Origin: an uncultured Bryobacteraceae bacterium
GTDB lineage: Bacteria > Acidobacteriota > Terriglobia > Bryobacterales > Bryobacteraceae
DNA: 60,479 nt
Assembly: GCA_955652915.1 (NCBI GenBank)
Contig: CATPCJ010000247.1
Span: forward strand, 1 to 60,479
Direction: 5' to 3'
The position numbers and the translations under genes were made by a program. The notes under the pieces were generated by a model that was not told where the DNA came from, made no database searches, and saw nothing but the letters and a program-made list of their open reading frames with translations. Each line of letters begins with the position of its first letter. Position 1 is the stretch's first letter. Shown here one piece after another: positions 6,983-18,058 of the stretch.

Positions 6983-7918
6983 CTACTTGCCGCAAGGTTG
7001 CTTGGAAAAATGGAGATCGTCCAGAAAGACGACACCACCGGTTGGGTTCATGGCCTTGGTCAGAACGATTGTGAACGCGCTCACCACGTTCTTCAAGTCT
7101 TCGCCAGACAAGTCCAGGCAGTACGGCTGCCAGTCTCCTTTTAACTGACGAAACTCGTCGACCACTTCGTGGGAAGCCTCATAGCCAATCTTTACCTGCG
7201 GTCCCGTACCGCCGCCGGATTTGAACTGCACAGTCGGAAAATCGCCTTCCGCGGACCTCAAGCCGCGAGCCCAAATTCGAAGCGAATGTATATCCTGGCC
7301 GGCCAAGTTTTTGCCTTTTGTTTCGCCCCAGTTCATCGTGCCCTGAGTGACGTACTGCCAGCTTACGGCGGCCCACCCGATGTCCCGGGGCTTGTAGTCC
7401 AGTCTGATACTGAATGGCTCGGAGTGCGGATGGTCACGAGAGCGTTCGTTAATAACAACGCCACCGCTCATGGCATCGCCCATGTAACCGGCGGCAACGA
7501 ATCCCAGTTTAATGATGTCGCCAGCCTCTGCAGGGCCGGGAGGTTGTTCAACGCGGGGCTGCTGCAATGGTTGTTCCGCGTTTGCCTTCGGTTTATCGTC
7601 TTTCGTTATTTCGAGGGACAGATCCCTGGTGATCTCGCCTCCGGGCGTGCGAATTCTGCAGATAATAACAAGCGGCCCCGGCGAATTCAGGACAATCTTG
7701 ACGGTGAGATCGGTGTTGGACCCCTCAATGCGAGCGGGCCCCTGCGCCTCCCAGGCCGGCTTCGCATCCCGTGCCAGCTTACCGGCCAACTCCAAGACAA
7801 TCGTTGCGCCAACTCGCGGCGGATCTCCAGATTTTAATTTGATCTCCTGGGCACTGATGGACCCAGTGAGAGCGGCCGCAAAGAAAAACGTGTTGCGAAT
7901 AAAACTATGCATGGTCAT
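6983..7918 (-). CDS. secreted protein, Ig-like N-domain plus beta-sandwich (CBM-like) C-domain
   Basis: Signal peptide MTMHSFIRNTFFFAAALTGSISAQE, a Pro/Gln-rich linker and a GGAG RBS. It starts 12 nt after the stop of the upstream gene. Confidence 0.55.
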   Translation of the reverse strand: MTMHSFIRNTFFFAAALTGSISAQEIKLKSGDPPRVGATIVLELAGKLARDAKPAWEAQGPARIEGSNTDLTVKIVLNSPGPLVIICRIRTPGGEITRDLSLEITKDDKPKANAEQPLQQPRVEQPPGPAEAGDIIKLGFVAAGYMGDAMSGGVVINERSRDHPHSEPFSIRLDYKPRDIGWAAVSWQYVTQGTMNWGETKGKNLAGQDIHSLRIWARGLRSAEGDFPTVQFKSGGGTGPQVKIGYEASHEVVDEFRQLKGDWQPYCLDLSGEDLKNVVSAFTIVLTKAMNPTGGVVFLDDLHFSKQPCGK

Positions 7919-7930
7919 TTTTGAGTCTCC

Positions 7931-9001
7931 TTATTCTTCTCGAACAATCGCATTACCAATACCAATCCCATCCCGACGTTGCAGAATAAACAAAAGCTTC
8001 AAAGGGAGGACAGAATTATTCTGCCGCACACGGTGAATTTCGAATTGCGCGTGGTACCTTCGCAGATCGCCATGGGACGTTCCGGGAAGTATACGCACTG
8101 AACCCAGCATGGGGAAGGTGCACGTCAGACTCGGTGAGCCTTTATCATCCGCGAGGCAGATTGCATGAACCCTCCGGCCCGATCGCGGCAGGTCCTCCGC
8201 GAACAAGTGCAAGACCGCCGGTAGAGGTCCCAATCCTGGCGGAACAAGGAAGACCGGCTCAGGTCCTGGGACTGGTTTCAATCCCAAAGTGACGGGTGTT
8301 ATCGGACCGTTCGGGGGGACTGCAAAACCGCTGATGTCGATCGCCCAGAAACGAGGCGGACAACCCTCGGCACACTGATGCGTAATGGCCCGGCCAATTT
8401 TTTCAATCGCCAGGGAAGGTAGGGCGTTGAGGGCGAGAAACAGGCAGAGTCCCGGCAACCAGAGCCACAGCATCCAGCGCCAAGGCCTGCCCCACCATAT
8501 TCCAGGCAAGCTCTGTCGAGAGATTTTTTGATTCTCGTGGGACTGCAAATAAAATCTTAGATTTTTAGGACAACCCTTTCGGCCGGCAAGTCTCCATAAA
8601 ATCCGAAGCCACCGGGGCCGGAGAAGGCCTGTTTGCCATTCGAAGAAACGTCGCATTACAGACGGCCGCGTGCGTTCGCCAGCGATAGCACGGAACATCG
8701 CCACCCATTCGCGTCGATCAAAGCACGCGCCGGGAATCACGAGCTGGATAGGTGTAGGCCGTCTCGAGCCTCGGTCGATACGCAAAAAGCAACCAAGTTC
8801 CAATACAAGAATGAAGAAGGCGGCAAACATAAACGCGAATTGGTCCATATTTTCCGTCCACCACCGGTTTTCCGGAAAAAACTTCAGGACCCAGAAGTCG
8901 CAGAAGAAAAACCATGCGAGCAAGCTGCCAACTCCCATACGCGCCATGGAACCCAGATTGCCAGTCAATAGGTACTGCAGCACAAGCAGGAAATGATGCA
9001 T
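7931..9001 (-). CDS. integral membrane protein of unknown function (last gene of the coupled operon)
   Basis: Start chosen at ATG 8999-9001, which shares one base with the TGA of the upstream gene (TGATG). Three hydrophobic helices: LLAWFFFCDFWVLKFF, FAFMFAAFFILVLELGCFL, WMLWLWLPGLCLFLALNALPSLAI. The ORF could extend to 9058. Confidence 0.5.
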   Translation of the reverse strand: MHHFLLVLQYLLTGNLGSMARMGVGSLLAWFFFCDFWVLKFFPENRWWTENMDQFAFMFAAFFILVLELGCFLRIDRGSRRPTPIQLVIPGACFDRREWVAMFRAIAGERTRPSVMRRFFEWQTGLLRPRWLRILWRLAGRKGCPKNLRFYLQSHENQKISRQSLPGIWWGRPWRWMLWLWLPGLCLFLALNALPSLAIEKIGRAITHQCAEGCPPRFWAIDISGFAVPPNGPITPVTLGLKPVPGPEPVFLVPPGLGPLPAVLHLFAEDLPRSGRRVHAICLADDKGSPSLTCTFPMLGSVRILPGTSHGDLRRYHAQFEIHRVRQNNSVLPLKLLFILQRRDGIGIGNAIVREE

Positions 9002-9654
9002 CACCCGCCACCTAGCAGAAGGCCCCGCGCCTGAAGCAGAAACAGCCTCTCGATGCACTCCTTACCGCTTGAACACTCGATGACCGGAAGACTTCTTCCA
9101 CCTTCTACCTGAAATTTGTGGACGACGGGTTCTTCCCCGTGTCGCGCGTTCCTCCACGGTACTCCTCCCTGATTCTGTGGGATGACGGCAATTGAAATCG
9201 CCGCCAAGTTCGCCAGCGCGGTGAGTTTGTCCAGGATGGATTTTGGTTCCACGTGCTGGAAGTAACCACAATCGTCGCCGGCGGCTGTAATACCGACGCG
9301 ATCAATACTCAGACACCGAATGTTTTCCGGCATGAGATGCGGATTCAATTCGCACGCCAGCTTGGCCAGGGCGAGAAAGGCCGCCCCAAATATCGATCCT
9401 CCACTTGCGCGCGGAGGAGTCCCTCCATTGAAAGTCACCATGTCCCATTCGATGTAAGTTCCCGCGAAGCATCCTGGGAAACATTCCTTGACCGCGACAT
9501 ATGCGGCTGTGATCACATCATCGAAGGATTTGGTGGCTAGCCGGCCCATTGCGGCCGAAAATTGCAACGGAAGACCGGCAGAGAGTTGTTTGACGATGAG
9601 CCGTGCAACGAAATATCCATTTGCCGAGCCGCATGGGGCGGTACAGAACGGCAT
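9001..9654 (-). CDS. hypothetical protein; possible Lon-protease-like (S16, Ser-Lys dyad) domain
   Basis: ASGGSIFGAAFLALAKLA...VGITAAGDDCGYFQHVEPKSILDKLTALA...IAVIPQNQ parallels the Lon protease-domain pattern DGPSAG.A...AMTGE...G.V.PIGG..EK...IIP..N. Similarity was judged by eye only. Confidence 0.45.
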   Translation of the reverse strand: MPFCTAPCGSANGYFVARLIVKQLSAGLPLQFSAAMGRLATKSFDDVITAAYVAVKECFPGCFAGTYIEWDMVTFNGGTPPRASGGSIFGAAFLALAKLACELNPHLMPENIRCLSIDRVGITAAGDDCGYFQHVEPKSILDKLTALANLAAISIAVIPQNQGGVPWRNARHGEEPVVHKFQVEGGRSLPVIECSSGKECIERLFLLQARGLLLGGG

Positions 9655-9657
9655 GAC

Positions 9658-10380
9658 TTAACTCCCTGCGTGCCAAGGGGCATAGACAAGTGTGATTACG
9701 TCAGTGCCTTCGGGAATTTCGAATCGTCCGTCCCAAGTGGCGATCCATCGTCCTGGCTGCACCGATTCATCGAATTTCGCACGGGCGGACACCAACTTAT
9801 GTTCCTCCGCTGTCCCGTAGCCGGATCGGAAGCTAAAAACTACCGATCCAGTCCCCAACTCCTTAACATTCGTTTCGAACAAGAGATTAAGCGCGGTCGT
9901 TTCAGACGGTATGAGCGTCACTTGAATTCGGGCGTCTATCGGCACAGAGTTGACTCGAACGGGCCGGGGCAAAGCGGAATCTGAAGTAGTGAAGGCAACC
10001 GCGACCCTTGCTTCGCCGATCTCTTCCCCAAGCGATTCCGGTCTGGCCAAAGCGTAGAGGCGATAGCTGGTTTTTTCATCTCGACCGATTTCAAAAATGT
10101 CTGTCGTGCCGTCCTCCCCGAAGTCCAGGAAGTTGATTTTTCCTGAATCGGATTCGAACATTGCTTCCAGCCGATTCCACTCTACTTCGGTGTGGGCGAA
10201 CGCGTGGCAGGCGATAAGCCCCCGCACCATGGCATCCCCTGGCTGGGAGGTGATGATCACGGACAAAGACAGATTCTCGCCCCGCACGTGAGTACCGTAG
10301 CGCGAGTCGAAGGCAAGTTTATTTAGCAATTTCTCGGCCTCCTGAAGCGCCGCGCTTTTTCGCTCAATTCTATCCGTCAT
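9658..10380 (-). CDS. hypothetical protein (beta-rich, no recognisable motif)
   Basis: 240-aa ORF. Its start overlaps the upstream stop by 11 nt, and its stop lies 3 nt before the next start. Confidence 0.5.
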   Translation of the reverse strand: MTDRIERKSAALQEAEKLLNKLAFDSRYGTHVRGENLSLSVIITSQPGDAMVRGLIACHAFAHTEVEWNRLEAMFESDSGKINFLDFGEDGTTDIFEIGRDEKTSYRLYALARPESLGEEIGEARVAVAFTTSDSALPRPVRVNSVPIDARIQVTLIPSETTALNLLFETNVKELGTGSVVFSFRSGYGTAEEHKLVSARAKFDESVQPGRWIATWDGRFEIPEGTDVITLVYAPWHAGS

Positions 10381-11896
10381 TTCTTCTCCCTCCTTTTCGC
10401 TGCCGGCGGACCTGGATGTCTTTGAGGCTTGGAACTTCTCCTGGTTTCAGACCGTAGTAGTCGTAGCCAACAATCCGCGCATGGGGGAAATTTTCGTTGG
10501 GCCGGTAGATTGTGGCCGGCGGCCAATTGTCCATGGTAGGCGCATCGCAGAAAGGACATACTCGATCCTGGTCCTCCAATAAATAGCCACAGCGGATCGG
10601 CTCTGGCTGGGCTTGCACCAAAGCACCGGTTTCCGGATCGGGAACAAATATCTTGATTAGCGGTGTGTACCGGTTCCGGCACCGGCGCACTCGAATCGAT
10701 TCGTAGGAGGGCGGGTCGCCTAAATAAAACAGGCATTCCATCGTGCCCCGGTACCGGCGATACTCACCACTCGGACTCGGACGCTCCTCCGGCTCCGCCT
10801 CGAATTTGCCGACCCGAATTTGCCCCCAACGAGTCCGCCGATCCGACCGGCGGAGTAGTCCGGCACCCAGATAGGCGCCGTACATGCCTTCGGCAAACGA
10901 ATTTGCATGGGGATTGGGTAGCTGGCCGCGGACCGCGTTAATAACTGAGCGTGACAAGCTAATATCCGCTGGACGCCATTTCTCCAGACGATGGCGGTCC
11001 TTACAGTACCATCCGCCACATTGGCACTCTAGCACGTCGAAGTCGCCTTCCAGGCGCGCCGAGCGCCCCGGTGGAACTGGACTCTCCGGCCCCAAATTCG
11101 CGGGACCTTTAAGTTCTTTGATCCTGACCTGCAAATCACCGCATCGTATCACGGCTCGATTTCCGTCGCGGAAAAGCCTCGATGCATCGTTTTGGAAGGG
11201 GGCAATGACCATGTCACCCTGTGGCTGAAGCGTCAAGTTCGATCCGGGCAGCATCGTTAGGGCACGCACGCCGTTCACGGCGATGTCTGCCGCTTCGCCG
11301 CGGTAAGAGACGGTAACTTGACCGTTTGAGTAACTCAGGCTGTGCTCCGGGTCAAGGTACCACGCTAGTAATTTGTCGGCGATTTTGTGGACCGTATCGG
11401 CATCCTCAAGATAGTCCCATCCGCCAGCCGTCATCAGGCAATTGACGGAGTTCTCAAGAAACCGATTTGCAATGTTCACAGCCTCGATGAATTGGAACCT
11501 GAGCCATGCTGCCGCCCGGGGCCATCGGTGTTCAGGAGTAGTTGGATGTCCGTTGAGGACAGTGCGTCGCCATCCCAGGCCGTAAGCGACACAGCAGTCC
11601 ACGGCGTGGTTGAACGCGGGAGCCGCATTGGCGGCGAACTCGATGGCGAGTTGATTCACGATGGCCTCGTGGTGGGCCGTAACTAGATGTGCCCACGCTA
11701 CCGCACCGCCGATTGGGGCGAAATCCTTTGTCAGAACTCCGATGCAAACGGCAACACGCACCTCGATTGCAGTTGGGTTTCCAACCATGACCGCTTGAAC
11801 TTGGGTCTCCAGGCTCTCGATTTCTGGCGAAACCAGGGCTTCGAGATGGTGATTGCCGGATATCTCAAGAGCGCATACCAGATCATCAAAATTCAT
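10370..11896 (-). CDS. hypothetical protein with Cys-rich C-terminal region
   Basis: The ORF extends to 12010. ATG 11896 (MNFDDLV...) has GGAG 6 nt upstream. The C-terminal part contains CQCGGWYC and CGY...CPFC clusters. Confidence 0.5.
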   Translation of the reverse strand: MNFDDLVCALEISGNHHLEALVSPEIESLETQVQAVMVGNPTAIEVRVAVCIGVLTKDFAPIGGAVAWAHLVTAHHEAIVNQLAIEFAANAAPAFNHAVDCCVAYGLGWRRTVLNGHPTTPEHRWPRAAAWLRFQFIEAVNIANRFLENSVNCLMTAGGWDYLEDADTVHKIADKLLAWYLDPEHSLSYSNGQVTVSYRGEAADIAVNGVRALTMLPGSNLTLQPQGDMVIAPFQNDASRLFRDGNRAVIRCGDLQVRIKELKGPANLGPESPVPPGRSARLEGDFDVLECQCGGWYCKDRHRLEKWRPADISLSRSVINAVRGQLPNPHANSFAEGMYGAYLGAGLLRRSDRRTRWGQIRVGKFEAEPEERPSPSGEYRRYRGTMECLFYLGDPPSYESIRVRRCRNRYTPLIKIFVPDPETGALVQAQPEPIRCGYLLEDQDRVCPFCDAPTMDNWPPATIYRPNENFPHARIVGYDYYGLKPGEVPSLKDIQVRRQRKGGRRNDG

Positions 11897-12204
11897 TCTC
11901 AACTCCAGTGAGAGGTTGCCGGCGGATGGAGGCAGTATGGCCGCCATTTCCAGGCCGCAACGGTTCCATAGACATATCGCACTGAAAACAAAGGATGATC
12001 GGGCACACATTGCTACCAGTCATCACTAGAAGTCGCATCCTTAAACCTCCGTCTTCGAGTGGCTATCAACTCCCAAACCTATTAGGGAGCTGCCCCCGGC
12101 AACTGAGCCTTCCGCTTCACCCGAATCACAATAACGTGACGTGACGAGCATTTTTATTTCAACAACTCTGGAAATCGCGGCAGTCAATCCCTGGTGCGCT
12201 ACAG

Positions 12205-12438
12205 TCAGGAGGTATCCCCCACCAGCGTGCGACTTAACTTTCTGGCCGCCTGGTTCTGACTCCAAGGCTCTAATCCAAAGTCGTACGGATTGTCGCGAGC
12301 AACCGCATCCCAGCGCGGAACTCCCCATACGGAACCACACTGCTCGCATTTCCACAGTTTGGCAAACCGTCCCATCTCGTTCTTGAATATTGTCACCGCG
12401 GCTTTGCCACGGCATCTTGGACAAATACGATCGATCAT
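12205..12438 (-). CDS. small zinc-ribbon protein
   Basis: AAGGAGAG RBS 5 nt before ATG 12438. The CPRC...CEQC pair suggests a Zn ribbon. 77 aa. Confidence 0.4.
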   Translation of the reverse strand: MIDRICPRCRGKAAVTIFKNEMGRFAKLWKCEQCGSVWGVPRWDAVARDNPYDFGLEPWSQNQAARKLSRTLVGDTS

Positions 12439-12528
12439 ATTCTCTCCTTCATTTCTCCGGGACCCAGCAGGCTGTTGAAATACATTCCGGTCCAGATTAT
12501 TGATCCACGCGACCGGCACGTTGCGTCT

Positions 12529-12601
12529 TCATTGCCTTTGGCTGTAGGCTCATGGAGCACTCCCTTACGGTCGCGGTTCTGTAAGTTTGGAACCATGACC
12601 G
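12529..12601. repeat. REP-like palindromic element, copy A
   Basis: Shares an exact 25-mer (gcactcccttacggtcgcggttctg, 12557-12581) and ~55 nt of homology with 56586-56641 on the opposite strand. It has an internal inverted repeat, cggtcgcggttc / gaaccatgaccg. Confidence 0.7.
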
Positions 12602-12808
12602 CTAGATAAGCATCCAGATCAAAGCGGCAATTTCGACTGCCGGAATAAACCAGATATAGAATTCGCTCCTGTATCGCGGAGAAGCGATGATCCGATCCTC
12701 GATAATGTGAGGATGTTTGGAGTTCTTGCAAGCAAAGACGAGGCGATCCCGCTCCCACCGATGCTCCACTTGTCTCCCGCATCGTCCGCAGTCCCAATAA
12801 ACTCGCAT
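12602..12808 (-). CDS. small Zn-ribbon-like protein with C-terminal TM helix
   Basis: GGAGG 11 nt before ATG 12808. Contains CGRCG...CKNSKHPH, and the C-terminus FYIWFIPAVEIAALIWMLI is hydrophobic. Confidence 0.35.
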   Translation of the reverse strand: MRVYWDCGRCGRQVEHRWERDRLVFACKNSKHPHIIEDRIIASPRYRSEFYIWFIPAVEIAALIWMLI

Positions 12809-13151
12809 GGCCAACCTGCCTCCAGCGAGAGTTAGGCCGCTGTCCGGCAGCCAGGAGGGTTTATCGAGTGAGGCGGCAAGGGCTGAAATGGGAGCTAAGA
12901 CTCAAAATCAGGAAAAGACCGACACGGTAGGGGCCGGATCGAACCGGATGAAGCTGTATTGCTCAGGTCAAGCGTGCGGTAGAGACATGCGCGTCGAGTG
13001 CAATTCCAACGTTTCAGAGGCGGATTGCACCCTCGGATTCTTTCCCCCGTCGAACCGTGTGCTCAACGCCTCGGCGCGAGTTTGCAGGACGCCCCCTGAT
13101 TCTTCTTTGAATTCAAGCAGTAGAAATGTGTTAGGATCTGTGCGTATTGGG

Positions 13152-13342
13152 CACCCGTAGCTTAATTGGTACGAAGACGCTCGCGGGAACCTTTGGAAGC
13201 TTGGTTTGGGAGACGGGCAGCTTTTTCCAGGGTATCAATGCCGGTAGCTCGTTCCTTGTGGAAGAAGCGGAACAAAAGGGTCTCAAAAGCACCAGTTTTG
13301 GGAACTGGGAGATGCGGGTTCGAATCCCGTCAGGTGCGCCAT
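13152..13342 (+). tRNA. tRNA gene, anticodon UGG (Pro-type anticodon arm), interrupted by a 115-nt insertion between A21 and nt 22 (possibly a pseudogene)
   Basis: 13152-13172 reads GCACCCG-TA-GCTT-AATTGGTA. 13288-13342 reads AAGC-A-CCAGT-TTTGGGA-ACTGG-GAGAT-GCGGG-TTCGAAT-CCCGT-CAGGTGC-G-CCA. Joined, they form a canonical 76-nt cloverleaf. Confidence 0.6.
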
Positions 13343-13438: not shown

Positions 13439-13468
13439 GATTCAACGATGAAAGGAGGTGATAACAAA

Positions 13469-13777
13469 ATGGACAACAACAAGGAGCTACAGAACCTGGT
13501 AGGCTCGCTGGGTGCAGTCAGCCGCAGTTTGGCTGATACCGCCGCGTCATTGGCGGAGAATGCTGTGCCAGTCGCCGTACCAGTAAAGACGTCCGGGAAA
13601 GCTGCTGCTCCACCGGGCGTTTTGGCTGCCATTGCGGCTGGCGCACCAGTCTCACTGCCACCCGCCGGGCTGCCACTGGCGCGAACCTTGAGCGACCACG
13701 CCGCACCAGTGGCGAGGTCTGCTCCATTGATCGCGCCAGCCGTTCCAGTCTTTGCGCCACTGGTTAAAGTCCAGTGA
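13469..13777 (+). CDS. small Ala/Pro-rich hypothetical protein
   Basis: AGGAGG 10 nt upstream of ATG 13469. The 102-aa sequence is low-complexity (AAPPGVLAAIAAGAPV...). Confidence 0.4.
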   Translation: MDNNKELQNLVGSLGAVSRSLADTAASLAENAVPVAVPVKTSGKAAAPPGVLAAIAAGAPVSLPPAGLPLARTLSDHAAPVARSAPLIAPAVPVFAPLVKVQ

Positions 13778-13839
13778 AGCGAAGATGAGAGCGTTGAAAC
13801 CCTGGAGTGAAACCCTGGAATAGATTACCCTGGACCGTG

Positions 13840-13864
13840 GGGCGCCGCTTGATACCCGGCGCCC
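13840..13864. terminator. GC-rich hairpin between convergent genes
   Basis: GGGCGCCG-cttgatacc-CGGCGCCC, an 8-bp stem between the stops at 13777 (+) and 13873 (-). Confidence 0.3.
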
Positions 13865-13872
13865 TCTATCGT

Positions 13873-14820
13873 CTATTTGCTCGCGCTCCGGGAATGCAAC
13901 GGGAATCCCTGTTCGAACATTGCGTCGGCAACCTCGCGCAACTCGAAGGCTCCCGCATCCCGGAACACCCGTAGCGTGGCCCGGCTGGCAGCGCGCGCAT
14001 TGGCGAGTAGCGTTTCCGGCGGGTAGCTCTCTTCCAGTATCGTTTCCGCCTCACGCACACTATAGTGTCGCCGGAGAAATGCGCGGATGGCGGGATCGTC
14101 GACCTTCAAGAATCCCAAAATAAACCGGGGCAGGGAGCTTCCGATGGTGACTTGGAGGCGCCGGGGCATCTGGGGCCATGCGATTCGACACACCTTGGCG
14201 AAGAACGCGTGGTGGTGAACCTCGTCCTCAGCGTGGTCCGCGGCCATTTCCCGAACCGCGGGAATCACATCGTCCGCTTGGGGAATACACAAGAGGGACC
14301 CGGAGATCAGAGTTTCGGAAACGACAACAAAGAATAGCTCTACCCAGGCCCGCGCTTCCGGCTCCGCCGCGGACACAGCCGAGTGGAAAAACTCCAACCC
14401 AGGATGCCCTGACCCTCCATCGAACCGGAATCCCGTTGCAGCCTGGATCTGAAACATCAGATCGGCCGAAAAGAGAGAATGATAACCCTCATCGCAGTAA
14501 ATTTTGCGGGCGTCCAAGAGGGCGTCTTGCGGAAGGGAGAGCCCGGCAAGTCCGTCGGCCAATTTCCGCACTGTCCGATTCACCACTTCGTGCTCCAGAC
14601 GATCCGTGAAATGAAGGTACGAAAATAACTGCTGCATCAAGCCTTCCCGGACGATCTTTGGGTCGGCGGAGGCGAGAAGGGGGTGCTTTATGAACGGAGT
14701 AAGTTCCGCGGGAAAACATCCAAGCCCTTGCTGTTCAAGCTGCTGCCCCAGCAACCTCCTTGGCCTGGAGCGGACGGTGGCTCGTTGATGCCAATCCCCG
14801 AGCACCGTCTTATACTCCAC
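13873..14820 (-). CDS. AurF/CmlI-family diiron (N-)oxygenase-like protein
   Basis: Ligand-like pattern DRLEHE ... CDEGYH (ExxH) ... VSETL ... ADHAEDEVHHH (HxxxExxH). GTG start. Confidence 0.65.
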   Translation of the reverse strand: MEYKTVLGDWHQRATVRSRPRRLLGQQLEQQGLGCFPAELTPFIKHPLLASADPKIVREGLMQQLFSYLHFTDRLEHEVVNRTVRKLADGLAGLSLPQDALLDARKIYCDEGYHSLFSADLMFQIQAATGFRFDGGSGHPGLEFFHSAVSAAEPEARAWVELFFVVVSETLISGSLLCIPQADDVIPAVREMAADHAEDEVHHHAFFAKVCRIAWPQMPRRLQVTIGSSLPRFILGFLKVDDPAIRAFLRRHYSVREAETILEESYPPETLLANARAASRATLRVFRDAGAFELREVADAMFEQGFPLHSRSASK

Positions 14821-14974: not shown

Positions 14975-15814
14975 GTGCAGAGCATCACCGAATCCTTACA
15001 GGCGGCATATCGTGAAAGATCCAAAATGTTCGATGCAATCTGTAATGCCTCTCCCTGGCATCGTTTGTATCGCGAAACCACGCTGACCGCGATCGATCGC
15101 ACGCTGTCCACACTCCCGCCAGGTCCACTCCGCATTCTCGATGCCGGCGGGGGTACGGGCTTGATGGCGGAGTGGCTCGCTAAAAAGGGTCATCACGTCG
15201 TGCTGGTCGACACTCTTCCGGATATGCTCGAGATCTCGCGAAAGAAGAGCCGCGAAACTCCCTTTGAAGTGCGTCAAGGCGATCTCTCGGATCTGTCCTG
15301 GCTCGATCCGGAATCTTTCGACGCAATCGTTTGCACCCAAGTGCTGAACTTTTTCCCAGACTTGGGCGCCGTGTTCCAGCAATTCGCCGGCGTGCTCAAA
15401 CCGTCGGGCATGGTGTTCGCCGATATCGACAATCCACTACGCTGGTGCCTGATTGAGGCGTTGGACGGTCAAATCGAGAATGCTATCGCGATCGTCCGGT
15501 CGGGAAAGGACGAACGCCGGAACATCGTCGGGGCGGATTATTTCTTTCACCGTAAGCAAGATCTGGCCGAGATCGTCGCATCCGCCGGGTTGAGACTGGA
15601 AGCTTCCTGGGGGGTTGCGTACATCGCCCCCTATGTGCATATTTTTGCGCGATCGCAAGAGTTCCTTACTCCTGAAAAGCTCCCTGAGCGAGCTGCGTTC
15701 TTCGCTCGCGAAGAGAACTATGAAAAGCTCAGGGCCCTGGAAGCGGAACTGGCGGCGCTCGACTTATGCGACGAAATGGCCGGCTACTTGCAGTTTTTCT
15801 GCGTTAAGCACTGA
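14975..15814 (+). CDS. class I SAM-dependent methyltransferase
   Basis: Motif I ILDAGGGTGLMAEWLAKKGHHVVLVD, with the acidic post-I residue and motif II/III spacing. Confidence 0.8.
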   Translation: MQSITESLQAAYRERSKMFDAICNASPWHRLYRETTLTAIDRTLSTLPPGPLRILDAGGGTGLMAEWLAKKGHHVVLVDTLPDMLEISRKKSRETPFEVRQGDLSDLSWLDPESFDAIVCTQVLNFFPDLGAVFQQFAGVLKPSGMVFADIDNPLRWCLIEALDGQIENAIAIVRSGKDERRNIVGADYFFHRKQDLAEIVASAGLRLEASWGVAYIAPYVHIFARSQEFLTPEKLPERAAFFAREENYEKLRALEAELAALDLCDEMAGYLQFFCVKH

Positions 15815-15825
15815 GGCGCCCTTCC

Positions 15826-16752
15826 ATGCTGAAACGAGGCTTCTTCTCCAATATCATGGTCGCCACCTACGTGGTGGACGCGGCCCTGATTGCAGCCGAA
15901 CATTCGCTCGGTGGCGACTGGCACGAAAAGATGATGCTGGCTCTCATCGTCCTTATGTTCGGCAAGTTCATCGACCTATCGGTCAGCTTGGCTAAGCTCG
16001 AGCGTGAGAATTCGCCCTGGAAGGAAGAGCAGCAGTTTATCGAGGACCACCCGGATTTCGCCGCCTGGGTCAGGTCGGTGATTGGAAACTACAACCGAGC
16101 CCAAGGCTTCACAAATAACACTTACCAGGAGCACCTCCAAGAGGATTTGGAGGAGTTCCGGGTCAGGATGGGCCGTTACAGCCACGGACATATCGAGAAT
16201 TCACAGGAGCGTCCGCCGGGCTTCTTCTACCGTCATCCGGACTATTTCGAACGGGACACAGAGAAGCGCATGGTGGCCACGTGCATTGTGGAGCGCGGCG
16301 CGTTTTGGGAGGTAGGTTCTTCGAAGTTGCTGCTGGAGCGGCAGGGCCAATTAGCGAGCAGGGGTATCGAAGTGATGCGTATCTTTATCGAGCGTAAAGA
16401 GGGGCTGGCCAGACTGCAACCCGCCATCGACCTGCATCAACAGAATTGCGTTCCCGTGCGCATCGCCTTGATCGATGACGACAGTAACCCGGTGCCGGAG
16501 CGGCTGCATAACGACTTCATGGTTATCGACGAGAGTGTGTTGATCCGGCAGGAAATGAGGAACGGTAAGCTCGCCAGCACCAAAGTCTGGCTCGGACAGG
16601 ATACCGAGGGAAAGCGCGAAATCGACATAGCTCTACTCGATTTTGAGTCGCTCAAGACGGAGTACAGCCTTCCTCCCGTGGAAGCGTTTCGCCGTGCTGG
16701 TATCCCAATGGTAGCGGCCACCAAACAACTTGCTCCGCCGCCTCAAAAGTGA
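15826..16752 (+). CDS. hypothetical protein
   Basis: 308-aa ORF starting 11 nt after the upstream stop. The N-terminus is hydrophobic. No motif recognised. Confidence 0.55.
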   Translation: MLKRGFFSNIMVATYVVDAALIAAEHSLGGDWHEKMMLALIVLMFGKFIDLSVSLAKLERENSPWKEEQQFIEDHPDFAAWVRSVIGNYNRAQGFTNNTYQEHLQEDLEEFRVRMGRYSHGHIENSQERPPGFFYRHPDYFERDTEKRMVATCIVERGAFWEVGSSKLLLERQGQLASRGIEVMRIFIERKEGLARLQPAIDLHQQNCVPVRIALIDDDSNPVPERLHNDFMVIDESVLIRQEMRNGKLASTKVWLGQDTEGKREIDIALLDFESLKTEYSLPPVEAFRRAGIPMVAATKQLAPPPQK

Positions 16753-16773
16753 TCGGGCGGCCATCGGCCTGGG

Positions 16774-17916
16774 GTGCTCATGCTGAATCGACAGCCTCTT
16801 CGCTGCTGGGCTGAAATCTCGCGGCGACAGATCGGGGAGAATTTCGACGCGGTCCGCCGCCTGGTCGCGCCGGCAGTGGAATTGGCGCCCGTGGTAAAGG
16901 CCGATGCTTGCGGCCATGGCGCTGTCGAAGTCTCGCGTATCCTCTGCGAGCGCGGCGCGCGGTGGCTGGCGGTTGCAAGCACCGGCGAAGGCGTCCGCTT
17001 GCGCGAAGCGGGTGTCGGTGTCCGCATACTCGTGATGGCGGATTTTCTCCAGGTCGAACCATCCGCGCTGATCGGGTATGGCCTGACGCCGGTTGTCCAT
17101 TCTTTGCCCGATATCCTCGCCTGGGACAAGCTCAACCGCCAGCACGGAGTCTCCCGCCCGTACCACCTTAAAGTGGATACGGGGCTGTGCCGACTGGGCA
17201 CTCGCGCCACCGCGCCGGAGATCGCCGAGGCCGTGAGGGGATGCTCGGCGGCACAGATCGAAGGATTGATGACTCACTTCGCGTCCGCCGCGGATTACAC
17301 CGGCGCCCAGACCACGGAACAAATCACGTCTTTTCTCCAACTCGCGGCTGCACTCAGACAGTGCGGCATTGCGATCCGCTATCTGCACCTCTCCGGGACG
17401 GTCCCGATTGCGTACGGGCGCAGGGAGGCATGGCAACAGATGGTGCGGCCAGGCCACGCGATCTACGGTTATGTCGCGCCGGCTTCGGGCGATGCCGCGC
17501 CGCCGAGCATGCTGCATGTTCGGCCCGCGCTGACATGGAAGGCTTCTATTCTCGCGATCAAGGATGTGCCTCTGGGCGCCGGCATCGGCTATCGAGCAAC
17601 GTACCGCGCACCCGCGCCCATGCGCCTCGCGATCCTGGCCGCGGGCTATGCCGACGGCATCCCGCACCAACTCGCAAACACCGGCCAAGTCATCGCGGGC
17701 GGCAAGCTCGCGCCCATCGTCGGCGCGGTCGGCATGGATCTGACATCCATCGACATCACCAGCTCACCGCACTTGCAGCCAGGGGATGCGGTTACTCTGC
17801 TCGGTTCAGAAGGCGGCATCTCGATCGACGCACAACAGCTCGGCCAAATGGCCGGCACAAGTTCTTACAGCATTCTCTGCGGGATCGCGGCCAGAGTCAA
17901 GCGTGTCTGGGTATAA
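16774..17916 (+). CDS. alr: alanine racemase
   Basis: PLP-lysine motif APVVKADACGHG (consensus VVKANAYGHG). Its length and C-terminal beta domain are typical. Confidence 0.85.
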   Translation: MLMLNRQPLRCWAEISRRQIGENFDAVRRLVAPAVELAPVVKADACGHGAVEVSRILCERGARWLAVASTGEGVRLREAGVGVRILVMADFLQVEPSALIGYGLTPVVHSLPDILAWDKLNRQHGVSRPYHLKVDTGLCRLGTRATAPEIAEAVRGCSAAQIEGLMTHFASAADYTGAQTTEQITSFLQLAAALRQCGIAIRYLHLSGTVPIAYGRREAWQQMVRPGHAIYGYVAPASGDAAPPSMLHVRPALTWKASILAIKDVPLGAGIGYRATYRAPAPMRLAILAAGYADGIPHQLANTGQVIAGGKLAPIVGAVGMDLTSIDITSSPHLQPGDAVTLLGSEGGISIDAQQLGQMAGTSSYSILCGIAARVKRVWV

Positions 17917-18058
17917 GGCTGGGAGGTACGGATGGTGCATCCGCACCCTTACGAAGCAGTGAAAAAATCGGTCACGGCTACGCCAGGATTCTCTCGTTTT
18001 GCCGGCGGGTGTAAATCGGCATGACGGCCAGCAAGGTAAACTATCATAATTGTACGTA

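Follow-up and report, generated by a model that had tools for sequence, protein, structure and literature searches.

A bacterial tRNA(UGG) family with a 115-nt structured D-loop arm, complementary to repeats downstream of a CCA-rich small ORF

We describe a kind of tRNA that was previously undescribed, in which a structured arm of 115 nt extends from the D-loop of a cloverleaf with the anticodon UGG. The gene was found in an uncultured Bryobacteraceae bacterium, in a window (the whole stretch of DNA that was analysed) of 60,479 nt, and it belongs to an RNA family conserved in several bacterial phyla. The tip of the arm is complementary to tandem repeats 3' of a small ORF (sORF) whose prolines are mostly encoded by CCA, and this module is linked to a gene cluster containing a synthetase paralog. 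From the sequences, we give an even chance to the reading that the 3' UTR of this mRNA serves as the docking site for its own dedicated tRNA, which decodes CCA there, probably with a residue other than proline. No prior description of this RNA was found in the literature searched, which left subscription journals mostly outside its coverage; this absence is not proof.

The preliminary description of the locus reported a tRNA gene split by a 115-nt insert. Both the split gene and the insert are real, and their coordinates were corrected by one position (13151-13341 and 13172-13286, instead of 13152-13342 and 13173-13287; Table 1). The insert boundary at 13172/13286 has a 1-nt 'A' ambiguity. When the insert was deleted, ARAGORN called a 76-nt tRNA-Pro(tgg), in agreement with the cloverleaf drawn earlier, and the C6:A67 mismatch of that drawing is present. 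U8, A14, G18G19, A21, T54T55C56, the A15-U48 pair and the encoded CCA were also confirmed in the sequence. The intact locus escaped both search programs: ARAGORN called no tRNA in the intact window, and no Rfam match reached the gathering score. At E<=10, Rfam returned for the window RNA nothing beyond sub-threshold partial T-arm matches (tmRNA, 12.4 bits; YrlA, 14.7 bits), and a family-model match that would identify a T-box, tmRNA or Y-RNA-like mimic was absent. In its intron modes, ARAGORN proposed only a tRNA-Glu that had a long variable arm and a 97-nt 'intron'; this call was rejected as implausible. The folding energy of the RNA was close to that of shuffled sequence (z=-0.09 and +0.80), and thermodynamics alone is uninformative here. 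Covariance model R1 scored the window RNA at 153.5 bits (E=1e-43).

Table 1. Features of the RNA module and of the linked genes in the window.
Feature	Position	Strand	Basis or remark
Whole RNA gene, tRNA(UGG) with D-loop arm	13151-13341	+	191 nt including encoded CCA
5' tRNA part, GCACCCGTAGCTTAATTGGTA	13151-13171	+	sequence reading and family pair counts
Acceptor 5' strand, then U8 A9	13151-13157	+	within 5' tRNA part
D-stem 5' strand GCTT	13160-13163	+	within 5' tRNA part
D-loop A14 to G19	13164-13169	+	within 5' tRNA part
Structured arm, 115 nt, D-loop variable region	13172-13286	+	length kept in family; cognate-specific helices
P1 closing helix, 5' strand AGAC	13175-13178	+	pairs with 13280-13283
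Apical hairpin, GGCA 13216-13219 / TGCC 13239-13242, 19-nt loop 13220-13238	13216-13242	+	
Docking motif in apical loop, CCAGGGTATC	13227-13236	+	family consensus YCAGGGYRUC
P1 closing helix, 3' strand GTCT	13280-13283	+	swap test and CM alignment
3' tRNA part	13287-13341	+	terminal letters GCGCCA
D-stem 3' strand AAGC	13287-13290	+	
Anticodon arm, then variable loop	13292-13308	+	
Anticodon TGG, reads CCA	13299-13301	+	TGG in 54/54 listed members
T arm	13314-13330	+	
Acceptor 3' strand	13331-13337	+	
G73	13338	+	
CCA	13339-13341	+	
Shine-Dalgarno of small ORF, AAGGAGGT	13452-13459	+	near-perfect
Small ORF, 102 aa, Ala/Pro-rich	13469-13777	+	Pro codons 11 CCA, 1 CCG, 1 CCC
Tandem docking units TGAAACCCTGGAG 13795-13807, TGAAACCCTGGAA 13808-13820, TAGATTACCCTGGAC 13821-13835	13795-13835	+	complementary to apical loop
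GC-rich hairpin, GGGCGCCG...CGGCGCCC	13840-13864	+	direct sequence reading; possible transcript end
Degenerate fourth unit, TGATACCCGG	13850-13859	+	in/around GC-rich hairpin loop
AurF-like diiron oxygenase	13873-14820	-	PF11583, E=1.8e-17; kept in relatives
Class-V PLP enzyme	18050-19276	+	Pfam Aminotran_5; gene directly 5' of RNA in most relatives
LeuRS-like class-I synthetase paralog, 783 aa, candidate charging enzyme	19998-22349	+	co-located with RNA in other phyla
SAM-dependent methyltransferase	22241-23257	+	Pfam Methyltransf_24/3; kept in relatives
ATP-grasp ligase-like protein, 539 aa	23254-24873	+	fold comparison; conserved in cluster

Relatives were retrieved with a loose pattern, which left the anticodon positions free and required the loop motif and the T arm, and then with nhmmer and covariance models (CM), which removed pattern matches of unrelated origin (e.g. 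Paenibacillus). The family comprises at least 54 distinct full-length relatives of 185-194 nt from at least five phyla, with hosts in Acidobacteriota, Eremiobacterota, Alpha- and Betaproteobacteria and Myxococcota. Burkholderia, Ralstonia solanacearum, Stappia and Hoeflea are cultured carriers, and complete Ralstonia genomes are included. The members exceed the length of a canonical elongator tRNA (~70-100 nt) and scored 114-172 bits with R1, versus 32-80 bits for ordinary tRNAs. One apparent insert-less member (L185, a 77-nt match of 80 bits) was an ordinary tRNA-Pro(CGG) after a chance CAGGGCGTC. Every relative has the insert at the same position, and no insert-less (empty-site) allele occurs among the matches listed. 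ARAGORN missed the RNA at the five relative loci tested.

Across the 54 distinct relatives listed, 89.7% of the cloverleaf cells were paired, versus 40-44% when the partners were slid. The acceptor, D, anticodon and T stems were 99% paired, and two-sided changes were found at 4:69, 6:67, 7:66, 13:22, 29:41 and 31:39 (acceptor, D and anticodon stems). The D stem closes across the insert with covariation, as 13:22 changes from UA to CG in 4 sequences. U8, A14, G18G19, A21, U33, U48, T54T55C56 and A58 are invariant in all 54, and so is the anticodon TGG, which the retrieval left free. Position 37 is always a purine (G37 in 49 members, A37 in 5). The invariance of the loop motif and the T arm is partly due to ascertainment, because both were required by the retrieval patterns. 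These results establish a conserved RNA family with cloverleaf structure, far beyond chance.

A tRNA gene inactivated by a MITE or IS, as the preliminary description had considered, or a chimeric assembly could account for an intact locus that ARAGORN and Rfam do not recognise. However, the insert is single-copy in the window, where the BLAST check for other copies gave only the self-match, the same architecture recurs in at least 54 distinct sequences whose assemblies are independent and include complete Ralstonia genomes, and covariation is found throughout the RNA. The comparative data thus refute the gene-killing MITE, the dead gene and the assembly artefact, to which we assign a negligible chance. 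No duplicated tRNA 3' end, a sign of an integration site, was found within the window. A prophage or integration-site origin of the upstream unknown genes was also considered and dropped, with no PHROG or Pfam matches for these genes and the RNA on no viral contigs.

The arm is 111-120 nt long across the family. Its placement in the D-loop stood, and its exact site was moved from behind A21 to the variable part of the loop: G18G19 and 2-5 nt precede the insert, and the conserved A21 follows it. The comparative arm structure covers the closing helix P1 and the apical helix. For P1, covariation was seen in 5 of 5 modelled pairs, and the CM alignment has 83% of its cells paired. Pairing in the apical helix reaches 88.8%, with as many as 5-6 pair types at a position and covariation at every modelled pair. 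In partner-swap tests, cognate arms paired better than swapped arms both in P1 (-9.8 versus -6.4 kcal/mol, p=5e-15) and in the apical helix (-9.0 versus -4.7 kcal/mol, p=1e-16). Of the two hairpins proposed earlier for the insert, GCTCGTTCC-TTGT-GGAAGAAGC exists as sequence, but the GAGAC...GTCTC pairing has no comparative support and is replaced by P1, in which the GTCT strand pairs with AGAC.

The most conserved part of the arm is complementary to the neighbouring mRNA. Arrays of 2-7 tandem units (GAYRCCCUGR) lie 22-57 nt past the sORF stop codon, 3' of the sORF and on the same strand, in 43 of 47 loci; a recognisable array or sORF downstream is absent in the other 4. In the 10-bp register between loop and unit, 43/43 loci show pairing at 9 of the 10 positions. 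Two positions showed perfect two-sided covariation (C-G in 38 and U-A in 5 loci; C-G in 40 and U-A in 3), and the independent events behind it are few, at least two for one loop position and possibly one for the other. In the window, WACCCTGGA occurs 6 times versus 0.46 expected; three copies cluster at the array, and one is the loop itself on the minus strand. The array is followed by a GC-rich hairpin, where a simple terminator scan made no terminator call (13840-13864), and in the Ralstonia homologue a GC-rich inverted repeat and ATTCTT directly follow the array. Tethering through the variable interior of the arm was also considered and rejected, as a test of cognate against swapped duplexes showed no difference (z about 0). 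Selection on the arm tip to pair with the neighbouring mRNA points to a functional, retained arm. The docking loop YCAGGGY is also complementary to positions 30-36 of the tRNA itself, including U34-G35-G36, and both sides are near-invariant. Because of this complementarity, the free tRNA may mask its own anticodon through the loop and may become competent for decoding only once the array captures the loop by stronger pairing.

Homologous sORFs were found downstream of the RNA in other phyla, with the Shine-Dalgarno GAAAGGAGGTGA kept upstream of 12/12 starts examined. CCA, to which UGG is exactly cognate, is rare in the GC-rich genomes of the carriers. In 14 sORFs, CCA made up 8-26 of the 9-30 Pro codons per sORF, versus 27/275 in the window genes, and the Ala codons were mixed. 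Family-wide, the sORFs use CCA for 580 of 722 Pro codons (~80%), and the operon enzymes use it for 0/90, 2/112 and 1/78. The CCA excess is strictly in frame, and Fisher tests of codon use gave p from 5e-5 to 7e-26. Among 76 Pro-Pro pairs in the sORFs, 71 were CCA followed by a CCN codon other than CCA, and only 2 were CCA-CCA versus ~49 expected. The invariant UGG, the invariant tRNA core and the CCA-laden adjacent ORF indicate an RNA that decodes and is more than a scaffold. On this point the tRNA-scaffolded ncRNA put forward in the preliminary description fell short, though it came closest in spirit. The sORF, its codon bias, the 3' repeat array and the linked synthetase paralog had been missed there.

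The RNA module is linked to the gene cluster. It is always accompanied by genes for an oxygenase, a PLP enzyme, an ATP-dependent ligase and a class-I synthetase paralog that is either LeuRS-like or ArgRS-like. PLP-enzyme homologues with 59-82% identity adjoin the RNA in 13 loci. In a variant cluster, an ArgRS-like paralog and a non-homologous oxygenase, PLP enzyme and ligase surround the same module of RNA, sORF and array. The 539-aa protein had no sequence-family match; its AF2 model (pLDDT 90.8) gave ATP-grasp peptide or amino-acid ligases as top Foldseek matches (8YND, 3WVQ/3WVR, BesA). No extra conserved gene was found between the ATP-grasp and PLP genes, where a ~290-aa ORF was present in L012 and L017 only, and the conserved gene set contains no nuclease, ligase for splicing or splicing enzyme.

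The 783-aa protein of the window scored 520.9 bits against the NCBIfam LeuRS equivalog, below the cutoff of 548.4. It keeps HLGH and KMSK, its editing motifs are degenerate (TTRPDT and the Asp of PAHD are lost), and it is without the leucine-specific domain and the elbow-binding C-terminal domain. Consistently, its alignment to T. thermophilus LeuRS ends at residue 805 of 878 and omits 578-637. With the catalytic HIGH and KMSK motifs retained, it is a class-I synthetase paralog and not a bona fide LeuRS. Positions 4:69 and 22 of the tRNA track the synthetase type (18/18 LeuRS-like loci; 5/7 and 6/7 ArgRS-like loci), a correlation that could also be co-divergence of two clades.

Bacterial ProRS requires C1-G72, A73 and G15-C48 (PMC9976931). 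In the family, G1-C72 and A15-U48 are invariant, and 46 of the listed members have G at position 73, with A in 6 others and U in the remaining 2, a set that departs from the ProRS one; G35 and G36 are present in 54/54 and G37 in 49. The acceptor and hinge features are non-Pro. E. coli LeuRS uses A15-U48, G18G19 and A20a of the D-loop (PMC9976931). A73 is critical to canonical LeuRS, while the family mostly has G73. Since the anticodon bases are strong ProRS determinants (PMC9976931), and G35, G36 and G37 are the strongest of them, the host ProRS might still load proline.

In the mechanism that we favour, the tRNA body is an L-shape-competent canonical cloverleaf with the UGG anticodon, from which the ~115-nt arm projects at the variable part of the D-loop. 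The synthetase paralog of the cluster (LeuRS-like here, ArgRS-like in the variant) would charge this tRNA. The loaded amino acid is probably not proline, and it may be made or tailored by the oxygenase, the PLP enzyme, the ATP-dependent ligase and the methyltransferase. The arm would then dock several charged copies on the 3' UTR of the mRNA of the adjacent sORF, which is probably translated strongly. The special tRNA would read CCA there, and the normal tRNA-Pro would keep CCA elsewhere. For this model we infer that the mature RNA keeps its arm, that the paralog charges it, which amino acid it carries, that it docks in vivo and that ribosomes use it. The ribosome contacts the tRNA elbow through the L1 stalk, the A-site finger and the L11 region. 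A 115-nt arm at the elbow may clash with these contacts, which makes ribosomal use of the unprocessed RNA uncertain.

Three other explanations accept the RNA as functional. One is a dedicated proline isoacceptor, which host ProRS would charge via G35/G36 and which would supply a rare-codon, proline-rich small protein or gate it in a bldA/TTA-like manner; the arm would raise local supply, and the paralog and the enzymes would serve, for example, self-resistance or post-translational tailoring. In its favour, the anticodon arm with its G37 looks like that of a tRNA-Pro, and the rest of the tRNA is also similar to genuine tRNA-Pro, with 80 bits under R1 for an ordinary tRNA-Pro(CGG). CCA is rare in the carriers' genomes, and ProRS relies strongly on the anticodon bases (PMC9976931). 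However, G1-C72, G73 and A15-U48 are at odds with the identity elements of bacterial ProRS, and the near-absolute CCA-then-CCG/CCC order (71/76 Pro-Pro pairs) would need a purely kinetic or steric cause. A resistance role is also hard to reconcile with a paralog whose catalytic motifs are intact, whose editing site is dead and which accompanies the module in two unrelated cluster types. We consider this explanation unlikely. Another is an aminoacyl carrier for non-ribosomal chemistry: the paralog would load the RNA, the oxygenase, PLP enzyme and methyltransferase would modify the tethered residue, and the ligase or another enzyme would transfer it to the sORF peptide or a small molecule. Some AurF-family oxygenases act on amino acids tethered to a carrier, a precedent in favour of this idea. 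The predicted fold of a core protein resembles ATP-grasp peptide ligases such as 3WVQ/3WVR, and the cluster, with its small precursor-like ORF, is reminiscent of those for peptide natural products. tRNA-dependent PLP chemistry also has precedents, SelA and SepCysS (PMC7609411). The transfer would proceed in the manner of PEARLs or tRNA-dependent transferases, with docking placing the donor beside the nascent peptide. A carrier, however, leaves the invariant UGG with U33 and purine 37, the in-frame use of CCA for ~80% of sORF prolines and the avoidance of CCA-CCA unexplained, and Pfam detected no PEARL/LanB-type domain in the cluster. We hold it to be distinctly improbable.

The third explanation is a new intervening sequence, in which a ribozyme, or a host endonuclease and a ligase such as RtcB, would excise the arm to give a 76-nt tRNA(UGG). 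The pairing between loop and repeats would then act on the precursor or the excised arm, for example by coupling maturation to the sORF mRNA or as an sRNA on the 3' UTR. Removal of the insert indeed yields a textbook 76-nt tRNA, a bulky elbow arm may not suit the ribosome, and the conserved insert length and closing helix would be expected if a processing machine measured the insert. Known bacterial tRNA introns are group I or II elements in the anticodon loop, a statement of the preliminary description that we judged correct. In contrast, this insert lies in the D-loop, its 115 nt are well below the group I size (~200 nt or more), and it had no Rfam intron or ribozyme match at E<=10. A BHB motif (3-4-3) could not be drawn at the junctions by inspection; they form a 5-7-bp helix with an asymmetric loop, and the hosts are bacterial. 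The conserved gene set is without nuclease or ligase, and the matches listed are without an intron-less allele. The insert occupies the 20a/b region of the D-loop, where extra nucleotides are tolerated, with the D-loop complete around it, and its most conserved part pairs with the mRNA, which fits a mature functional domain. Excision is, in our judgement, very unlikely, also in the forms that would accommodate the pairing. The docking tRNA remains our preferred reading.

Even in the most conservative view, the results describe a family of structured RNAs of ~190 nt that is widespread, wholly unannotated and associated with a cognate small protein and a repeat array, and they expose a blind spot of tRNA finders. 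Its occurrence in soil bacteria, Burkholderia and the plant pathogen Ralstonia solanacearum makes it genetically testable. If the docking model is true, this would be the first tRNA with a large functional expansion domain. It would also be the first case of direct tRNA-mRNA docking outside the decoding centre that confines a tRNA to one message, and the first instance in nature of a sense codon that a dedicated tRNA/synthetase pair reassigns in one message. This would bear on the long-standing question of how codon reassignment evolves without proteome-wide damage, and would give synthetic biology a ready design for incorporating non-canonical amino acids in an mRNA-selective way.

Several known systems share features with this module. 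As with the group I introns in the anticodon loop of bacterial tRNAs and with archaeal BHB introns, whose positions vary and include the D arm, deletion of the insert restores a canonical cloverleaf. Here, however, there is no group I/II signature and no BHB, the host is bacterial, no intron-less allele is listed, and the tip targets an mRNA. Class II tRNAs, tRNA-Sec and allo-tRNA also use extra or altered arms as identity elements and keep the L-shape core. Their known arms reach at most ~20 nt in the variable region, whereas the present arm has ~115 nt in the D-loop of an RNA of ~190 nt in total. Reviews give tRNA lengths of 70-100 nt, with no D-loop expansion among the types given (PMC7609411, PMC11415595). 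T-box riboswitches likewise bring mRNA and tRNA into contacts that are sequence-specific and lie outside the ribosome. A T-box, however, is located in the 5' leader, recognises ordinary tRNAs by their anticodon and 3' end, and controls transcription or translation; here an extra tRNA arm is predicted to contact a 3'-UTR repeat array, and Rfam gave no T-box match. ProRSx/tRNA-ProX of Streptomyces has a similar mismatch between anticodon and acceptor identity and an adjacent dedicated synthetase paralog (PMC11415595). tRNA-ProX carries Pro identity with Ala, Asn or Thr anticodons at normal size, whereas here the anticodon is that of Pro and the body is non-Pro, and the RNA has in addition a 115-nt arm, a cognate ORF with biased codon use and a docking array.

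The pyrrolysine cassette (pylT-pylS-pylBCD) is a portable cluster with an unusual dedicated tRNA, a dedicated synthetase and biosynthesis enzymes, including the ATP-grasp ligase PylC. The parallel set here would be the tRNA, the synthetase paralog, an ATP-grasp/GS-like ligase, a PLP enzyme and an oxygenase, and tRNA, synthetase and enzyme genes are co-located in two cluster types (a functional analogy without homology). Pyl uses the stop codon UAG and has neither a tRNA arm nor an mRNA docking array; here the codon would be the sense codon CCA, the paralog is a class-I enzyme of LeuRS or ArgRS type, and specificity for one mRNA apparently comes from RNA-RNA pairing. We tentatively propose that the module may be a natural and portable cassette for sense-codon genetic-code expansion, in which the paralog would load a cluster-made non-canonical amino acid onto an orthogonal tRNA(UGG), and CCA would be recoded in one message. 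This possible cassette could also be seen, by analogy, as a protein-free counterpart of the 3'-UTR SECIS of archaea and eukaryotes, an mRNA element outside the recoded codons that recruits a special tRNA for that mRNA. The selenocysteine tRNA itself is told apart by an unusual D arm, and its bound residue is the substrate of a PLP enzyme (PMC7609411). SECIS acts at UGA through a protein factor (SelB/eEFSec/SBP2), whereas here the tRNA's own arm would pair with 2-7 tandem sites, the cluster has no gene for a specialised elongation factor, and the codon would be CCA. Finally, bldA (tRNA-Leu UAA) in Streptomyces similarly connects a rare codon of a GC-rich genome (TTA) in particular genes with one tRNA gene. 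It is an ordinary tRNA that acts genome-wide on TTA genes, whereas here the tRNA, its target ORF and its docking sites form one physical module.

In the window, the tRNA gene interrupted within its D-loop was confirmed as the preliminary description had it, with positions that differ by one base. No tRNA was called by ARAGORN when the whole intact window was scanned. Rfam gave no match at the gathering score, and just sub-threshold T-arm fragments at E ≤ 10. After the insert was deleted in silico, ARAGORN called a 76-nt tRNA-Pro(tgg). Neither the insert (z = +0.80) nor the whole RNA (z = -0.09) folded better than shuffled sequence, so thermodynamics is uninformative on its own. The acceptor mismatch C6-A67 (window 13156 and 13332) is common to three members of a 43-sequence alignment, the window included, and the other members have U-A, C-G or U-G at 6:67. 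The mismatch is a conserved lineage feature, not damage.

Features of the RNA, the docking array and the extra cluster genes in the window
Feature	Position	Remark
5' tRNA part	13151-13171	
Insert	13172-13286	115 nt
3' tRNA part	13287-13341	
Closing helix P1	13175-13178 with 13280-13283	
Apical helix	13216-13219 with 13239-13242	presents a 15-19-nt loop
Near-invariant loop motif YCAGGGYRUC	13227-13236	within the apical loop
Docking array	13795-13835	units TGAAACCCTGGAG, TGAAACCCTGGAA, TAGATTACCCTGGAC
Second methyltransferase	14975-15814	homologue in no related locus
308-aa unknown	15826-16752	homologue in no related locus
Alanine racemase	16774-17916	homologue in L030 only
237-aa unknown	19273-19986	homologue in L030 only

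Species-representative genomes were searched with a pattern of the anticodon and T arms. Five loci shared the interrupted architecture (four Eremiobacterota MAGs and one Xanthobacteraceae MAG). Each Eremiobacterota MAG held two tandem diverged RNA copies, and ARAGORN called none of the RNAs at the five loci. In a second search the PLP enzyme of the window cluster was employed as bait, followed by an nhmmer profile for the RNA; every homologue at least 59% identical adjoined full-length RNA copies. The hosts were Acidobacteriota, Eremiobacterota, Alpha- and Betaproteobacteria and Myxococcota, with Burkholderia multivorans, B. pyrrocinia, Ramlibacter and Hoeflea poritis as named proteobacterial carriers. 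Anticodon-free pattern scans of genome and metagenome collections raised the total to at least 54 distinct RNA sequences of 185-194 nt, and added Stappia stellulata, Stappia sp. and Breoghania sp. among the matches listed. Nineteen megaplasmids of Ralstonia solanacearum carry the RNA, unannotated there, and none of the viral contigs searched contained it. The covariance model R1 scored members at 114-172 bits, compared with 32-80 bits for ordinary tRNAs. The earlier suggestion of a gene killed by a MITE-type insertion is refuted, because the insert is single-copy in the window and the architecture is conserved in at least 54 distinct sequences. A dead gene or an artefact is excluded.

When 43 members were aligned by plain MAFFT, the cloverleaf and two insert helices were 89.7% paired, versus 40-44% with the partners slid by 1-3 columns. 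Compensatory changes were observed in this alignment in the acceptor stem (4:69, 6:67, 7:66) and the anticodon stem (29:41, 31:39). The D stem, closing across the insert, changed from UA to CG at 13:22 in four sequences. U8, A14, A21, U33, U48, T54-T55-C56 and A58 are invariant in 54/54 sequences. The insert starts 2-5 nt past G18G19 and ends directly before A21, in a stretch of the D-loop that normally tolerates extra nucleotides (20a/20b). Two-sided changes were seen at every modelled pair of both P1 and the apical helix, which were 83% and 89% paired after realignment to the model, an alignment that leans towards the model. We also used an alignment-free swap test, in which each 5' arm was paired with its own 3' arm or with the arms of other members. 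Own arms were favoured in P1 (-9.8 versus -6.4 kcal/mol, p = 5e-15) and in the apical helix (-9.0 versus -4.7 kcal/mol, p = 1e-16). Between the two helices, the arm interior contains purine-rich motifs and a putative small hairpin on its 3' side.

Within the tRNA itself, positions 30-36, U34-G35-G36 included, are likewise complementary to the docking loop YCAGGGY (columns 86-92 and 160-166 of alignment A2, window 13227-13233 and 13295-13301), with 99% of cells paired. Covariation cannot confirm this pairing because both sides are nearly invariant; the complementarity may represent anticodon masking or coincidence.

Positions 34-36 were unconstrained in the retrieval pattern, and the anticodon was TGG in 54/54 members, with U33 and a purine at 37. 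The family is a widespread tRNA-shaped RNA of about 190 nt, with a structured D-loop arm and an invariable UGG anticodon. A small ORF (sORF) of about 80-140 aa (102 aa in the window) starts 37-127 nt downstream of each RNA, behind a conserved near-perfect Shine-Dalgarno sequence (GAAAGGAGGTGA). Its products are homologous across phyla, Ala/Pro-rich, and share a C-terminal ..AAPVA.SAP..VP.. region. CCA made up 8-26 of the 9-30 proline codons in each of 14 sORFs. The window sORF has 11 CCA, 1 CCG and 1 CCC, and the other window genes use CCA for 27 of 275 proline codons. The excess was exclusively in-frame (e.g. 26/0/2 over the three frames), and alanine codons inside the sORFs were mixed. The cluster enzymes were nearly without CCA (0/90, 2/112 and 1/78 proline codons; Fisher p for sORF versus enzymes, 5e-5 to 7e-26). 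An automatic survey of all candidate sORFs, a few mis-called ORFs included, gave CCA at 580 of 722 proline codons. Among their 76 Pro-Pro codon pairs, 71 were CCA followed by CCG, CCC or CCT, and just 2 were CCA-CCA versus about 49 expected from codon frequencies. The sORFs therefore do not treat CCA as interchangeable with other proline codons. The adjacent ORF, with its strong conserved ribosome-binding site, is written in the cognate codon CCA and avoids CCA-CCA.

No complementarity to the sORF mRNA was found for the variable arm interior. For the conserved apical loop, complements of 10-13 nt were found downstream of the RNA. They form tandem arrays of 2-7 units with a period of 13-15 nt (consensus GAUGCCCUGGAA), starting 22-57 nt past the sORF stop codon on the same strand in 43 of the 47 loci examined. 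The register is fixed: loop 5'-YCAGGGYRUC-3' faces unit 5'-GAYRCCCUGR-3', and nine of ten positions are paired in 43/43 loci. Two positions covary perfectly. At one, 38 loci have C-G, and the 5 loci with U-A fall into two distinct lineages (L004/L215/L310 and L210/L313). At the other, 40 loci have C-G and 3 have U-A (the window, L007 and L297). Mixed cases were zero at both. WACCCTGGA occurs 6 times in the window versus 0.46 expected; three copies lie in the array and one is the apical loop itself on the opposite strand. After the window array, a GC-rich hairpin contains a degenerate fourth unit. In Ralstonia, the array runs directly into a GC-rich inverted repeat (CGCTACGGCG...CGCCGTAGCG) with ATTCTT behind it; by sequence this resembles a terminator hairpin, in which case the array would lie in the 3' UTR. 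The arm tip and the 3'-UTR repeat array are kept complementary by selection.

Several variants were observed. In Eremiobacterota, tandem RNA-sORF-array modules, two per locus and about 700-800 bp apart, occur at L001, L002/L009, L003/L008, L006 and L010/L129. Their tRNA bodies are nearly identical; the divergence lies in the arm interiors and in the sORFs, of which one type is a GAPALAVPAG-like repeat of low complexity. Four metagenome contigs (L274, L318, L241, L266) form a sub-family with discriminator A73; the 3' strand of the D stem is AAGT in three and AAGC in L241. Their sORFs end in ..AAPDVALAAPD.. and have merely 3-7 CCA codons, yet the arrays are full, with 3-4 units. For the RNA copies at L176, L104, L240 and L243, the 800 nt downstream contain neither an array nor a CCA-rich sORF that could be recognised, and a LeuRS-like gene lies nearby at L104 and an ArgRS-like gene at L240; the partner ORF may be elsewhere or the modules may be decaying. 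In Burkholderia pyrrocinia, R1 gave a tRNA-like match of ordinary size (L016 11936-12022, minus strand; 87 nt, 32 bits), opposite in strand to the docking array and about 250 nt past it. Many Paenibacillus genomes (L086-L163 and others) contain the loose pattern CAGGGYRTC-N40-70-...CGGGTTCRA close to contig ends. None of these matches passed the family profile, and the pattern may be a conserved rRNA/tRNA-operon feature.

At about 58% G+C, the window is part of a bacterial chromosome. It carries flagellar and motility genes together with housekeeping enzymes and a protein with a Solibacter-type C-terminal domain, and its nearest relatives are Terriglobia/Acidobacteriaceae MAGs. The RNA is followed downstream by the sORF, an AurF-like diiron oxygenase on the minus strand, two methyltransferases and an alanine racemase, and further on by the class-V PLP enzyme, a LeuRS-like protein that scores under the LeuRS cutoff and a protein of 539 aa without family match. 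This is a rearranged form of the usual order: LeuRS-like, methyltransferase, AurF-like oxygenase, 539-aa protein, PLP enzyme, RNA, sORF, array. The extras at 14975-17916 and 19273-19986 are common at most to the Terriglobia relative L030, and the racemase hints at D-amino-acid chemistry in the window lineage. Directly upstream of the RNA, seven consecutive minus-strand ORFs (6983-12797; 311, 375, 217, 240, 546, 127 and 120 aa) had no Pfam or PHROG match and no homologue in related loci, and this block is possibly an island. A PLP enzyme of the SelA-related/DgaE family (10-1380; 142.7 bits with TIGR01437, below cutoff) is encoded 12 kb away from the RNA. Other loci do not keep this gene beside the RNA, so its nearness is probably coincidental.

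HLGH and KMSK are retained in the LeuRS-like protein. Its alignment to T. thermophilus LeuRS (878 residues) spans residues 9-578 and 637-805, so the leucine-specific and C-terminal domains are missing, and the protein's editing-site motifs are degenerate (TTRPDT to VAHPSL, PAHD to PAHL). These features are common to nine family members. E. coli LeuRS takes no account of the anticodon and relies on A73 together with the hinge elements A15-U48, G18G19 and A20a; bacterial ProRS requires C1-G72, A73, G15-C48 and G35/G36 (PMC9976931). The RNA family has G1-C72, mostly G73 and invariant A15-U48. By sequence, it amounts to a proline anticodon with a Leu-type hinge and a non-Pro acceptor end, the arm leaving at the 20a region.

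The 539-aa protein belongs to a rare family, with 83 clusters at 90% identity in a set of 5.8 billion proteins, and its AlphaFold model (pLDDT 90.8) matches ATP-grasp peptide and amino-acid ligases (8YND, 3WVQ/3WVR, BesA). In the metagenome protein P0026 (876 aa), an AurF-like oxygenase domain (PF11583) is naturally fused to the ATP-grasp-like protein, which suggests that the two share a substrate. Two betaproteobacterial loci (L012 4692-5543, L017 8416-9306) have an extra ORF of about 290 aa between the ATP-grasp-like and PLP genes, which we suspect from its N-terminal sequence to be a TauD/TfdA-type dioxygenase. At L004 and relatives, the enzymes around the same RNA-sORF-array module are non-homologous members of these classes: the oxygenase is of the fatty-acid-desaturase family, the PLP enzyme of the Cys/Met family, the ligase is glutamine-synthetase-like, and the class-I synthetase paralog is of the ArgRS family. 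In both cluster types, a synthetase paralog and enzymes of amino-acid chemistry are thus linked to the module. LeuRS-like loci have 4:69 C-G and A22 in 18/18 RNA copies, and ArgRS-like loci have 4:69 U-A in 5/7 and G22 in 6/7. The two positions track synthetase type as identity elements would; co-divergence of clades could produce the pattern too.

Our confidence is high in the RNA family, in its link to the codon and in the pairing of loop and array. The most economical reading is a dedicated tRNA, which would be charged by the synthetase paralog, dock in several copies on its own mRNA and decode CCA there, probably with a non-proline residue. We judge this full docking-and-recoding mechanism about evenly poised between right and wrong. 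Avoidance of CCA-CCA could arise if two arm-bearing tRNAs are sterically excluded from adjacent ribosomal sites, or if two special residues react poorly with each other. On the ribosome, an elbow arm of this bulk could itself be a problem.

Three other readings were weighed against the dedicated recoding tRNA. The RNA could be a plain dedicated proline isoacceptor, which the UGG anticodon favours and the CCA-CCA deficit speaks against; we regard this as unlikely. Slightly less probable is an aminoacyl carrier for non-ribosomal chemistry, a reading in line with the amino-acid-chemistry enzymes that leaves the in-frame codon excess unexplained. Least probable of the three is that the arm is an intervening sequence that is excised. 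The preliminary description had proposed a small intervening sequence, and by the tests for group I/II and BHB introns this found no support; its option of a tRNA-scaffolded RNA came nearest the mark of the three it offered.

By their defining tests, the RNA is not a group I/II intron, a BHB intron, a MITE, a T-box or a bona fide tRNA-Pro, and the LeuRS-like protein is not a bona fide LeuRS. Reviews of non-canonical tRNAs give a size range of 70-100 nt and do not list D-loop expansion among the forms (PMC7609411, PMC11415595). No earlier description of the module was found in the full-text literature searched, in which subscription journals are incompletely covered. Three systems function most similarly: the pyrrolysine cassette, with a tRNA, a synthetase and biosynthesis genes including an ATP-grasp ligase; recoding directed by a 3'-UTR SECIS, in which an element of the mRNA brings a special tRNA to that single message; and the ProRSx/tRNA-ProX pairs (PMC11415595). 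The module belongs to none of them. It is an apparently undescribed RNA-mRNA-synthetase module, and cultured Ralstonia and Burkholderia allow it to be tested.
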